Assembly (NCBI GenBank): GCA_000165345.1
Contig: CM000436.1
Span: 352,001 to 416,000 of the forward strand
Direction: 5' to 3'
Length of the DNA stretch: 64,000 nt
In this document: positions 53,727 through 56,064 of the stretch, piece after piece
How positions within the stretch are numbered: position 1 is the stretch's first letter
Layout: each line of letters starts with the position of its first letter
Translations under genes and position numbers: made by a program
Notes under the pieces: model-generated
Databases searched by the model: none
What the model saw: only the letters and a program-made list of their open reading frames with translations
Told to the model about the DNA's origin: nothing

Positions 53727-53758
53727 GTATGGCGCCAAATTTTGTTGTGGCGCCATAC
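53727..53758. promoter_or_regulatory. Perfect 10-bp inverted repeat GTATGGCGCC / GGCGCCATAC (two E2F-like sites) in RPC5 / PHAX divergent promoter
   Basis: GTATGGCGCCAAATTTTGTTGTGGCGCCATAC lies between ATG 53555 (-) and ATG 53988 (+). Confidence 0.45.
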
Positions 53759-53987
53759 AGATACCGCTAAAAAGGCGAATGGTCAAAGTCAAATGTAATG
53801 AAGAAATTAGAACTATTGGCTAAATTAGAGCATTCGCATTTCAGTTGCATTAAAAATAATTTGGCTTGATTGGCTTTTGAATTCACAAAGCAGGTTAATG
53901 GGATTTTGTGTGGGTTATAAGAGTAATAAGTAAGATAATATTTGATGATAGGAGAAAAAAGAATTAAGGGGTTAATATCAATACCTT

Positions 53988-54452
53988 ATGAAGAAGAAGG
54001 CAGACTTTTTAAATAGACTAAAGCTATTAAAAAGAGATGACAGAGAGCAGATTAAACTGTTTTCAAAGTTAGTAAGGGAATTGAAGGAGCCAAATATTTA
54101 TTTATTGGAAAGAATTGTATATTTTATTCCAAACGAATTAGTATATAAAACTTTTAATGAAACAAGAATAATTATAAAGAATGGGGGGTATCCTACAGAA
54201 GATAGCACTAGATTAAAAAGCCCAGGTGGAATATTCTTTAGATTAATAAAGAACCAAATTTCTCATGAAGAATACAAGAAAATTTGGAATATTCAAAGAC
54301 AAAAAAAAAAGAATCAGAGAAATAAAAAATTGTCACTTAGTAAGATCAATGATAATGAAGATATAAAAGGTGAAAAAGATGATGAATATGAAGATGGAGA
54401 ATTATCTGAGGAGGCTATATTAATGGATGACTTAAAGTGCATGTATTTGTAA
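53988..54452 (+). CDS. PHAX-like RNA-binding protein (RNA_GG_bind domain)
   Basis: 154-aa ORF starting at ATG. LKEPNIYLLERIV...FNETRIIIKNGGYPTEDSTRLKSPGGIFFRLIKN matches the PHAX RNA-binding domain (LQEPNKDLL...LNETAEVEQNGG...RRRTPGGVFLNLLKN). The C-terminal tail is basic and acidic. Confidence 0.6.
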   Translation: MKKKADFLNRLKLLKRDDREQIKLFSKLVRELKEPNIYLLERIVYFIPNELVYKTFNETRIIIKNGGYPTEDSTRLKSPGGIFFRLIKNQISHEEYKKIWNIQRQKKKNQRNKKLSLSKINDNEDIKGEKDDEYEDGELSEEAILMDDLKCMYL

Positions 54453-54528
54453 TAAAGCTACGGAATATCATAATTTACACAAATTCTTCTATCCTTAATA
54501 GATTATAAAATTTAGTTATATTAGTCAC

Positions 54529-55503
54529 TTAATTTCTGTAATTATACCAATTTGAAATTCTGTGTAAAAAATTTGTCAATCCAAATAATTTCAACGGAGC
54601 AATTACTATTCCATAATTCATAACCCAGTCTTGTCTGATTTTCGGTTCATGTAAGCTTTTGTTTATTAAAAGATTATTCATTTCTCTCCAAACCTTCCAA
54701 ACTGGAAGTCTTGATTTTATTGGCCAAATTGATAAAATTGAAACTATATCTTTATCAAGCAAAATACCATCGGAAATTTCATCATTTATGTTACTAATCA
54801 ATTTAGTTTTTTTGTCATTCTTCATTTCATCCAGCATTTTATCAAAACAAAGAGATGAACTTAAACCCTCAATATATTCTGAAGGAAAGATTTTCCAATC
54901 TATCCAAATTTCTATGATGCTTTTTGTTTTATTAATAAGATCAATATAACAACTGTTTCCTCGGTTACTTTGAAATGATATATGTGAAACTAGATACGGA
55001 AATATATTCATAATACAATTTCTAAGCTTCCAAGCTCCTATCTTTGAAGAGTGAGAATTGTATAATATATCTGAAATACAATATAAAATTGAAACCTTAA
55101 CTTCAAAGGTTGAATTTGGAAATCTTTGTATTAGTAATTCAATCATTTGAACTGAATGTTGGTCTGAATAATCTACAACAAAAGTCATTATTTCATTAAT
55201 TTTCATTCTCTTTGTTGTTAAGCTATCTAATAATCTTTCATAGCTTTTTTCCAAATTGCCTGGCATTCTTTCACAACTTAGTTCATAGTATAAAGATTCA
55301 ATTGGGGAGGAAAATTTTTCATATACATTCAAATTCTCATCATAATTTTCTTTTATTTCCTCCAGGTATTTATTATATAACATCATAAAATCGTCATTTT
55401 GTTCTAATGAATTCATATTGTTAATAGTTCCATCCAGATCGATCCAAATCCAACAAAGTGGATCATTATCGGGAATATTGAGCATTCTCTCAGATAGAAC
55501 CAT
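54529..55503 (-). CDS. CID (RPR) domain-containing protein, putative RNA pol II CTD-interacting factor
   Basis: 324-aa ORF with ATG at 55503. The central region carries VKVSILYCISDILYNS (compare LYLANDVLQNS) and IIEIWIDWKIFPSEYIEGLSSSL (compare IWeeRnvF...i..L), both characteristic of CID domains. Confidence 0.4.
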   Translation of the reverse strand: MVLSERMLNIPDNDPLCWIWIDLDGTINNMNSLEQNDDFMMLYNKYLEEIKENYDENLNVYEKFSSPIESLYYELSCERMPGNLEKSYERLLDSLTTKRMKINEIMTFVVDYSDQHSVQMIELLIQRFPNSTFEVKVSILYCISDILYNSHSSKIGAWKLRNCIMNIFPYLVSHISFQSNRGNSCYIDLINKTKSIIEIWIDWKIFPSEYIEGLSSSLCFDKMLDEMKNDKKTKLISNINDEISDGILLDKDIVSILSIWPIKSRLPVWKVWREMNNLLINKSLHEPKIRQDWVMNYGIVIAPLKLFGLTNFLHRISNWYNYRN

Positions 55504-56025
55504 TTTAAATCAACTAACTTAATGTCAGCTTTGACAAGCAAGCGTTCATTACGTAAAATCTACTTCTATCTAAACTCAGGTAATATAGTGTAATAATCTT
55601 CGCCCAAAATTTCTATTCCAATTTGTATTCTATCTAAATAAGTAACAAAATAGTTAATAAATCATCATAAATCTAACATATAATATTATACAAAGAATGT
55701 ATGTGATTATATGATGGCTAAAACATTAAATAGTTTTAGTCATAAAGCAAAAAATTAACTCACTGAATCAAAAAGATATTATTTTTCTAACCCTATTATG
55801 ACACTTACATTCTTATTGGATAAAAAAACGTAAGCAACGCCTGAATAGGGTATATTTCTTTTAATATCATAAACAAGAGTTTCTCTTTAAAGATAACTTT
55901 TTTTTTAAATACAAAGTTTTATCTTTTTAAAGAACTTGATTTATTTTATACAATTCTTATTTAATATTGCTTATTTACGTATTCATTAATATATAGTAAA
56001 GTCAATTAATAATATTAATTTAAAA

Positions 56026-56064
56026 AATTGTGGCGGGGAATTGTGGCGGGGAATTGTGGCGGGA
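56026..56064. promoter_or_regulatory. Three tandem copies of AATTGTGGCGGGG (E2F-like GGCGGGAA) in CID / pseudophosphatase divergent promoter
   Basis: AATTGTGGCGGGGAATTGTGGCGGGGAATTGTGGCGGGAAA, a 13-bp unit repeated three times. Confidence 0.45.

Follow-up and report, generated by a model that had tools for sequence, protein, structure and literature searches.

Conserved core spacing in probable E2F-like motif arrays of two divergent promoters on Cryptosporidium parvum chromosome 8

Two repeat features in short divergent promoters of Cryptosporidium parvum, an inverted repeat in the RPC5/PHAX intergenic region (promoter A) and a tandem repeat in the intergenic region between a CID-domain gene and a phosphatase gene (promoter B), are very probably arrays of one and the same motif, the known Cryptosporidium E2F-like motif (TTTGGCGCC / TTTGGCGGGAA). 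Across three promoters, the number and spacing of the cores were conserved throughout the genus, whereas exact symmetry and copy number were not. The motif itself has already been described, and the modest new detail is the spacing of the arrays together with its genus-wide conservation. In Cryptosporidium, a parasite that is a major cause of childhood diarrhoea, this motif is believed to have the leading part in the control of transcription.

The window, by which we mean the whole 64,000-nucleotide stretch of DNA that was analysed, is part of C. parvum chromosome 8, and the proteins it encodes have identical entries from C. parvum Iowa II. Gene order was common to the window and 10 other Cryptosporidium species or lineages, and the orthologous promoters were compared with those of all ten (C. 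tyzzeri, C. hominis, C. meleagridis, chipmunk genotype I, C. ubiquitum, C. canis, the Logan lineage, C. felis, C. ryanae and C. xiaoi). The sampled species are all relatives, with C. parvum, C. tyzzeri, C. hominis and C. meleagridis being the closest and their agreement providing little independent evidence. Pfam analysis agreed with the original prediction in naming RPC5 and PHAX as the genes that flank the inverted repeat. No E2F or DP gene was detected in the window when its gene set, 23 ORFs with a minimum length of 100 aa, was scanned with Pfam. An Rfam scan of positions 53500-56400 gave no match at the inverted or the tandem repeat. A snoRNA-like RNA candidate was also observed at 55695-55851 on the minus strand.

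Table 1. Genes, E2F-like sites and neighbouring elements of promoters A and B, with two further core arrays (positions within the window).
Feature	Position	Strand	Remarks
Centrin/clathrin promoter array GGCGCC-N6-GGCGC-N5-GGCGCC	197-224	+	Includes third GGCGCCATAC copy
Second inverted core pair GGCGG-N7-CCGCC	50487-50503	.	104-120 bp upstream of WDR3-like gene
RPC5	50868-53555	-	Pfam
Conserved block AATGTCATTTAAGATTAAAAAAA	53701-53723	-	Adjoins array, RPC5 side
E2F-like site 1 (left arm)	53727-53737	-	Reads ATTTGGCGCCATAC; T-rich flank inward
E2F-like site 2 (right arm)	53748-53758	+	Reads TTGTGGCGCCATAC
Decayed third core ACCGCTAAAA	53763-53772	-	Intact in some relatives
Conserved block AATGGTCAAAGT	53778-53789	+	PHAX side of array; conservation 0.75
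CCAAT-like element TGATTGGCT	53867-53875	+	Between array and PHAX ATG
G-box-like element TTGTGTGGGTTA	53906-53917	+	Between array and PHAX ATG
PHAX	53988-54452	+	Pfam
CID-domain gene	54529-55503	-	Flanks promoter B
Three 13-bp units AATTGTGGCGGG(G/A)	56026-56064	+	Each a full E2F-like site of TTTGGCGGGAA type
Conserved TGCAAGTATCTT	56086-56097	+	Between tandem sites and phosphatase ATG; conservation 0.94
G-box-like TTTGTGGGTATG	56111-56122	+	Between tandem sites and phosphatase ATG; conservation 0.84
Y_phosphatase3 gene	56312-57580	+	Flanks promoter B

In promoter A, GTATGGCGCC-N12-GGCGCCATAC occurred once in the window (53727-53758) and in none of 100 shuffles. The repeat could be extended by one base inward, giving perfect arms of 11 bp (GTATGGCGCCA and TGGCGCCATAC) around a 10-nt centre, and the perfect inverted repeat that had been predicted is real with arms of 11 bp rather than the 10 bp claimed for it. 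Site 1 faces RPC5, with the ATG 176 bp away, and site 2 faces PHAX, with the ATG 239 bp away. As GGCGCC is its own reverse complement, the palindrome adds just a flank match of 4-5 nt once two sites are given, and a perfect palindrome with a self-reverse-complementary core is poor ground for inferring function. Within promoter A, conservation over 12 columns was highest (0.83) at 53710-53721, inside AATGTCATTTAAGATTAAAAAAA, which may be a core-promoter or start-site element. Towards PHAX, a CCAAT-like and a G-box-like element were identified, both motif families being listed for C. parvum (PMC3734150).

In promoter B, the 13-bp unit AATTGTGGCGGG(G/A) was present three times head to tail, as originally proposed (Tandem Repeats Finder: period 13, 3.2 copies, 96% matches). 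The units face the phosphatase gene, the ATG of which lies 254-280 bp away.

Both the inverted and the tandem repeat are composed of GGCGCC and GGCGGG cores. Read on the minus strand, site 1 (TTTGGCGCCA) was an exact match to the published motif 3, DTTGSCGCCH, and site 2 (TGTGGCGCCA) agreed with it at 9 of 10 positions. In the tandem repeat, unit 3 (TGTGGCGGGAAA) agreed with motif 4, TTTGGCGGGAAV, at 11 of 12 positions and units 1 and 2 (TGTGGCGGGGAA) at 10 of 12. The presence of E2F-type cores in these divergent promoters is thus supported by sequences that fit motifs already published for this organism (PMC3734150), a prior description that the original prediction had missed. Although intergenic DNA makes up 25% of the window, 10 of the 13 copies of GGCGCC and five of the nine copies of GGCGGG/CCCGCC were intergenic. 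Cores sat 100-550 bp from a start codon, with a core present in nearly every 5' intergenic region of the window. The intergenic E2F-like cores were also clustered, six neighbouring pairs being 8-35 bp apart compared to 0.76 expected (P about 5e-5).

A third copy of GGCGCCATAC was found at 197-206, 328 bp upstream of a 165-aa EF-hand ORF of centrin type. Its presence in the centrin promoter had been predicted correctly, but at 201-210. The array to which this copy belongs has core spacings of about 12 and 10 bp and was kept in five species (C. parvum, C. hominis, C. tyzzeri, C. meleagridis and C. canis). We rejected GGCGCCATAC as a conserved extended motif since its ATAC flank was changed in sister species in both promoters. 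The counterpart of ATAC was ATAT, ACAC or ACAT in promoter A of sister species, and in the centrin promoter C. hominis and C. meleagridis share ACAC, where C. tyzzeri has GTAT; the common flank to which the original prediction had drawn attention is therefore not conserved. The ATAC-type flank tends toward purine/pyrimidine alternation. At the second inverted core pair (50487-50503), C. ryanae and C. xiaoi have the CCGCC half only. A downstream AAATG(A/T)C element seen beside several cores was also rejected, with 14 of 25 copies intergenic, an approximately twofold excess that is unconvincing in AT-rich DNA.

When the orthologous promoters were examined, core clusters were found at the same places and with nearly fixed spacing in all 10 of the other species or lineages, and the cores ranked among the best conserved blocks in otherwise diverged intergenic DNA. 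The absence from sister species that would have refuted the original prediction was thus not seen. Three cores were present in promoter A in eight species or lineages, with CpG-to-CpG distances of 18-19 and 14-15 bp. The remaining three, C. felis, C. ryanae and C. xiaoi, have the outer two cores only, 28-32 bp apart, which is close or equal to the summed three-core span of 32-33 bp. No species examined had lost the core of site 1, which read GGCGCC or CCGCC. Of the 10 other species or lineages, 7 have GGCGCC at site 2, the middle core, which is absent from C. felis, C. ryanae and C. xiaoi and has decayed to AGCGCC in C. meleagridis. The third core was intact as CCGCCAAA in C. meleagridis, chipmunk genotype I, C. 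ubiquitum, C. canis and the Logan lineage, and lay 14-15 bp from the middle core wherever three cores exist. In promoter B, two GCGG cores 13-15 bp apart were detected in 11 of 11 species, with the spacer sequence free to vary.

The perfect inverted repeat was seen in C. parvum only, the match being 9/10 in C. tyzzeri and 8/10 in C. hominis. Its spacer length also differs within C. parvum, with 12 nt in the window but 13 nt in two further assemblies. The outer cores of promoter A read CCGCC on one strand in three lineages (C. ubiquitum, C. canis and the Logan lineage). Across species, the distance within the pair was near-fixed (18-19 bp), and what has been conserved is not the head-to-head symmetry of the original prediction. 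The tandem repeat had three copies in C. parvum (in all three assemblies examined) and in C. meleagridis, with different unit sequences, and two copies in C. tyzzeri, C. hominis, chipmunk genotype I, C. ubiquitum and C. canis. The third copy arose separately in C. parvum and C. meleagridis, and the triple repeat goes back to an ancestral double to which a 13-bp duplication was recently added. Neither the palindrome nor the third copy is a designed geometry, and the exact symmetry is incidental. The perfect 11-bp palindrome would have come about by flank drift around the self-reverse-complementary core, and the third tandem copy by slippage duplication of the 13-bp unit, each a recent event in a single lineage.

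In the interpretation that we favour, the selected unit would be the cluster of two or three cores with its nearly fixed spacing. Each core would be bound by a winged-helix heterodimer of E2F/DP type, and several adjoining sites would raise occupancy so that a region of roughly 60 bp stays open, from which transcription would start both ways, about 150-300 bp from each ATG. We assume that the cores lie upstream of the transcription start. The comparison itself shows which motif this is, that it is enriched and clustered in intergenic DNA, and that core number and spacing are conserved in the genus, while we infer the binding protein, activation and any cooperativity.

Cooperative or dimeric binding at the arrays, which the original prediction took to be implied by their arrangement, is no more than plausible. 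The constant spacing with a free spacer could mean that geometry matters beyond additive occupancy, which leans to the cooperative idea. A bolder proposal, which we consider rather unlikely and put forward only tentatively, is a strict promoter 'E2F grammar', in which two or three cores stand at set centre-to-centre distances, either about 13 bp or 18-19 plus 14-15 bp. Such arrays would have been maintained over tens of millions of years since a number of E2F/DP heterodimers would form one higher-order complex, which would define a nucleosome-free bidirectional core promoter in a genome without most other canonical promoter factors. If this were true, the fixed spacing beside a freely varying spacer would be the first sign of it from comparison between species. 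Natural variants for testing are on offer in the form of two versus three copies, 12 versus 13-nt spacers, and intact versus decayed middle cores.

It seems distinctly unlikely that the exact geometry is itself the functional unit, with symmetry and copy number selected because E2F/DP heterodimers bind the palindrome and the abutting 13-bp sites cooperatively, or as a dimer of dimers with a bridging factor. Such an arrangement would suit the inter-core spacing, strikingly constant in the genus beside variable spacer sequences, the frequency of arrays in the window and the two independent gains of a third copy, and the adenovirus E2 early promoter offers a precedent. However, the restriction of the perfect palindrome to C. 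parvum, a spacer that differs by isolate, the asymmetric one-strand outer cores of three lineages, the decayed middle core of C. meleagridis and the sufficiency of two copies in C. tyzzeri and C. hominis all count against it. In addition to this, with 10.5 bp to a turn, 13 bp amounts to about 1.24 turns and 18-19 bp to 1.7-1.8, and neighbouring sites are thus not on the same helix face.

The octamer is said to have been first seen on chromosome 6, by Bankier et al. in 2003. "E2F-like" is the most over-represented upstream motif known in C. parvum (Oberstaller 2013, PMC3734150); in the literature it has been placed upstream of 161 of 200 expression clusters, and it dominates sporozoite ATAC-seq peaks, many of which carry the annotation of a bidirectional promoter (bioRxiv 10.1101/2025.01.17.633476). 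C. parvum is reported to have two DP genes along with two or three for E2F (PMC3734150, PMC4117751, PMC12246861). The E2F genes include cgd1_1570 and cgd6_1430. According to a 2025 review, functional validation is missing for most Cryptosporidium regulatory components (PMC12246861), and our literature search for binding experiments with Cryptosporidium E2F/DP found none. The E2F assignment comes from motif similarity alone (PMC3734150, PMC12246861), and functional cores might instead be bound by a protein other than E2F/DP, such as another GC-box binder or a general factor, with "E2F-like" describing a resemblance. A motif near-ubiquitous upstream of genes, in the window as well as among the expression clusters, would suit a general element over a cell-cycle regulator. 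We nevertheless regard a different binder as rather improbable, since the palindromic [C/G]GCGC[G/C] and the TTTGGCGGGAA forms both fit canonical E2F sites, T-rich flank included, and since Cryptosporidium, where the motif is most over-represented upstream, is the only apicomplexan genus reported to retain E2F/DP. Moreover, the E2F-like motif was not recovered with C. parvum AP2 domains on protein-binding microarrays (PMC4117751).

Chance closeness of abundant motifs, combined with a neutral minisatellite, could also have produced both arrangements as neutral accidents, and the high abundance of the motif and the recent, variable state of the third copy and of the flank identity are in keeping with this. 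We consider it very improbable, as the multi-core arrays hold their position and spacing where the surrounding intergenic DNA barely aligns, a conservation across species that disfavours neutrality, and clustering in the window was far above random placement. Finally, a role of the inverted repeat as a nucleic-acid structure (DNA cruciform or transcript hairpin) is extremely improbable and was rejected, for although the 42-nt region as single-stranded DNA forms an 11-bp stem (-13.2 kcal/mol, z = -6.6 compared to shuffles), this stability is trivial for two GC-rich self-reverse-complementary cores, and the stem is weaker in C. tyzzeri (-11.4 kcal/mol) and C. hominis (-9.8 kcal/mol) and gone in species with asymmetric cores, with no compensatory changes seen and the cores, not the pairing, conserved.

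The preferred reading, that of arrays of the E2F-like motif, can be set beside several known systems. Promoter minisatellites that expand by slippage are similar to the tandem repeat in its 13-bp unit, its two or three copies among close species and the homogeneity of its units within species. However, the two-copy state here is ancient and kept genus-wide with a diverged spacer, so the repeat is not simply a product of recent slippage.

The adenovirus E2 early promoter contains two inverted E2F sites that are bound cooperatively via the viral E4-6/7 protein, and the human E2F1 and DHFR promoters contain adjacent or overlapping, inverted E2F sites. All of these have two nearby E2F cores in a promoter, inverted as in C. 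parvum, whereas Cryptosporidium species do not keep the inverted symmetry, and some of their conserved arrays have cores on the same strand. We know of no bridging-factor candidate for the Cryptosporidium E2F-like arrays, nor, to our knowledge, has an Rb-family partner been described from C. parvum.

The canonical E2F/DP site of animals and plants, TTTSSCGC, for which an E2F4-DP2-DNA structure is available (Zheng et al., 1999, cited in PMC3734150), likewise combines a symmetric core of 6 CG-rich base pairs with a one-sided T-rich flank, and its length of about 12 bp fits the 13-bp repeat unit. In contrast to the canonical sites, the Cryptosporidium motif is found upstream of most genes and not of cell-cycle genes alone, and its binding by the parasite's E2F/DP proteins is putative. 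The C. parvum E2F-like family (PMC3734150) shares with the present sites the organism, the cores, the short-upstream location and the T-rich flank, and these sites are instances of it. The papers on this family draw on over-representation by expression cluster and on ATAC-seq, one of them remarking that orientation, spacing and number "need to be considered", and to these the present analysis adds fixed-spacing arrays and their conservation across the genus.

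Two divergent promoters carrying E2F-like cores (GGCGCC or GGCGG(G) type) were followed up, promoter A between RPC5 and PHAX and promoter B between a CID-domain gene and a Y_phosphatase3 gene. The window has a G+C content of 27% and is dense with long ORFs without internal stops. Its sequence is present on chromosomes of 1.34-1.38 Mb in several C. parvum assemblies, and for PHAX, RPC5 and the phosphatase the encoded proteins show full identity to Cryptosporidium parvum Iowa II entries.

The inverted repeat named in the original prediction proved real. GTATGGCGCC-N12-GGCGCCATAC occurred once in the window (53727-53758) and in 0 of 100 shuffles, and was perfect over 11 bp, each arm gaining one inward base. 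It lay 176 bp from the ATG of RPC5 and 239 bp from that of PHAX, with the T-rich flanks of the C. parvum arms turned inward and each arm facing its own gene. Because GGCGCC reads the same on both strands, the palindrome contributes just 4-5 nt of flank match beyond two adjacent sites. The triple tandem repeat of promoter B was also confirmed as three units (period 13, 3.2 copies, 96% matches; Tandem Repeats Finder), at distances of 254-280 bp (phosphatase) and 529-555 bp (CID) from the start codons. A third copy of GGCGCCATAC in the window had been placed at 201-210; it exists, but at 197-206.

Positions of genes and E2F-like elements in the window
Feature	Position	Strand	Basis
EF-hand, centrin-type protein	525-1022	+	Pfam
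RPC5	50868-53555	-	Pfam
PHAX	53988-54452	+	Pfam
CID-domain protein	54529-55503	-	Pfam
Y_phosphatase3	56312-57580	+	Pfam
Centrin promoter triple array, GGCGCC-N6-GGCGC-N5-GGCGCC	197-224		
Inverted core pair upstream of WDR3-like gene, GGCGG-N7-CCGCC	50487-50503		
Inverted-repeat left arm, GTATGGCGCCA	53727-53737		
Inverted-repeat right arm, TGGCGCCATAC	53748-53758		
Tandem repeat, 3 x AATTGTGGCGGG(G/A), head to tail	56026-56064		

Clustering of E2F-like cores is common in the window and non-random. Ten of the 13 GGCGCC copies were intergenic, where intergenic sequence makes up 25% of the window, and nearly every 5' intergenic region contained at least one E2F-like core. Six neighbouring pairs of intergenic cores were spaced at 8-35 bp, against 0.76 expected under random placement (P ~5e-5). 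A coding cluster (CCCGCC, GGCGCC and GGCGCC within 27 bp, 14082-14108) was located in a 2806-aa Med14-like ORF, in a locally G+C-rich stretch (14001-16000; 36% G+C), and may be an internal promoter or simply reflect coding constraint. A 1.2 kb region without an ORF of at least 100 aa (43728-44922), between the 3' ends of two convergent genes, contains a strong E2F-like site (TTTTGGCGCCATTT, position 44056). This hints at a gene missing from the annotation, which could be small, spliced or non-coding.

Syntenic loci were retrieved via orthologues of the CID protein and exact-protein look-ups from C. hominis, C. tyzzeri, C. meleagridis, chipmunk genotype I, C. ubiquitum, a Cryptosporidium lineage from a Logan assembly, C. 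canis, C. felis, C. ryanae and C. xiaoi, together with two further C. parvum assemblies. Gene order was identical at all of them, and in alignments of promoters A and B the cores were among the best-conserved blocks. What is conserved is a same-motif array of E2F-like cores with nearly fixed spacing. Promoter A carried a three-core array (CpG-to-CpG distances of 18-19 and 14-15 bp) in 8 species or lineages, the third core having decayed to CCGCT (53763-53772) in C. parvum, C. tyzzeri and C. hominis and the middle core reading AGCGCC in C. meleagridis. C. felis, C. ryanae and C. xiaoi kept the outer two cores 28-32 bp apart, near or equal to the summed span of 32-33 bp. Spacer sequences varied freely among species. 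Promoter B had two GCGG cores in all 11 species, 13 bp apart (15 bp in C. canis, C. felis and C. xiaoi), separated by spacers of unrelated sequence. The centrin promoter array was kept in C. hominis, C. tyzzeri, C. meleagridis and C. canis.

Sister-species conservation, the refutation test attached to the original prediction, thus upheld the clusters and their core spacing but not the perfect palindrome or the third tandem copy. The palindrome was perfect in C. parvum only, matching at 9/10 positions in C. tyzzeri and 8/10 in C. hominis, and its spacer was 13 nt (T5, not T4) in the two other C. parvum assemblies. This T-run (53737-53748 in the window; 2749-2761 and 671-683 at the compared loci L001 and L002) is a within-species length polymorphism inside the promoter. 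The outer cores of C. ubiquitum, C. canis and the Logan lineage were CCGCC on one strand, in a direct and not a head-to-head arrangement. The species nearest to C. parvum, C. tyzzeri and C. hominis, had two copies in promoter B, and the three units were of GGCGGGGAATTGT type in C. parvum and of GGCGGGCAAGTAT type in C. meleagridis; the third copy thus has independent origins, each by a 13-bp duplication. The ATAC flank of the centrin promoter was replaced by ACAC (C. hominis, C. meleagridis) or GTAT (C. tyzzeri). Selection is unlikely to have acted on the exact palindrome, the third copy or the shared ATAC flank, all of which are recent and variable. The 4 nt outward of GGCGCC (53759-53762 and 203-206; compared loci L003-L024) alternated purine and pyrimidine in most species (ATAC, ATAT, ACAC, ACAT, GTAT). 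In several the outer flank read GCCACAC. Its likeness to the C. parvum AP2 'CACACA' motif raises the possibility of a second, overlapping site.

Sister-species conservation supports a function for the clusters, and the arrays sit in composite promoters with conserved G-box-like, CCAAT-like and other blocks. Most likely, several E2F/DP-type heterodimers would occupy adjacent sites and keep the short divergent promoter open, and drive transcription both ways. Spacing that stays constant while spacer sequence varies is compatible with a genuine constraint on geometry, perhaps cooperative assembly, although we consider such a broader spacing grammar doubtful. That the exact symmetric or dimeric arrangement is itself functional is less probable still; the comparative data gave no support for reading dimeric or cooperative binding from the inverted and triple arrangements. 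A hairpin with a structural role at the inverted repeat is unlikely, as the stem weakened from -13.2 kcal/mol in C. parvum to -11.4 in C. tyzzeri and -9.8 in C. hominis and no compensatory changes were seen.

Promoter B is more complex than a simple pairing of CID and phosphatase genes. A minus-strand block (55695-55851), located between the CID gene and the tandem sites, was near-invariant in the 10 species with the region retrieved. Its fold comprises two hairpins on either side of an AGAAAA hinge, with ACA after the second; both stems showed compensatory changes (double changes in 8 of 31 predicted pairs), and Rfam gave a sub-threshold match to the H/ACA snoRNA snR35 (25.9 bits, E = 0.006). 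The block probably encodes an H/ACA snoRNA, a class with four members reported in C. parvum alongside many intergenic ncRNAs (PMC9465071). Since its putative 5' end lies ~175 bp from the tandem sites, the minus-strand partner of the phosphatase gene may be this snoRNA-like RNA, possibly co-transcribed with CID.

A different type of site was observed in the formin/FH2 promoter (57751-57790), where the 40-bp composite block ACCGGTATATAATTTTTGTCCACACTGGCGGTGACGTAAT was near-identical in all species examined. Unlike plain E2F-like sites, its GGCGG core is flanked by GTCCACAC and the CRE-like TGACGTAA. The left two thirds, up to GTCCACACTG, persist even in C. ryanae and C. xiaoi, the species furthest from C. 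parvum, in which the core and the TGACGTAA part differ. Similarly, CATGCGCCACGTAAT (50569-50579), intergenic between the WDR3-like gene and the RPC5 3' end and common to C. parvum, C. ryanae and C. xiaoi, fuses a GCGCC core to an ACGTAA element.

Reading the sites as E2F-type fits a motif family that is well documented in C. parvum. The most over-represented C. parvum upstream motifs are E2F-like, namely motif 3 (DTTGSCGCCH) and motif 4 (TTTGGCGGGAAV) (Oberstaller et al., PMC3734150), and such motifs lie upstream of 161 of 200 co-expression clusters (PMC4117751). E2F motifs dominate the ATAC-seq peaks of sporozoites, and over half of these peaks were annotated as bidirectional promoters (2025 preprint, 10.1101/2025.01.17.633476). 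Cryptosporidium is reported as the sole apicomplexan genus retaining E2F/DP, with two or three E2F and two DP proteins in C. parvum (PMC3734150, PMC12246861). A review stresses that E2F/DP binding of these motifs is without validation (PMC12246861), and our literature search for such binding experiments on the Cryptosporidium motifs found none. The left arm of the inverted repeat, read on the minus strand (TTTGGCGCCA), matched motif 3 exactly, and tandem unit 3 (TGTGGCGGGAAA) matched motif 4 at 11 of 12 positions. The sites offer little that is new, being known motifs in a genome that has been scanned for them before; what is modestly new is that core number and spacing are conserved genus-wide at three promoters.
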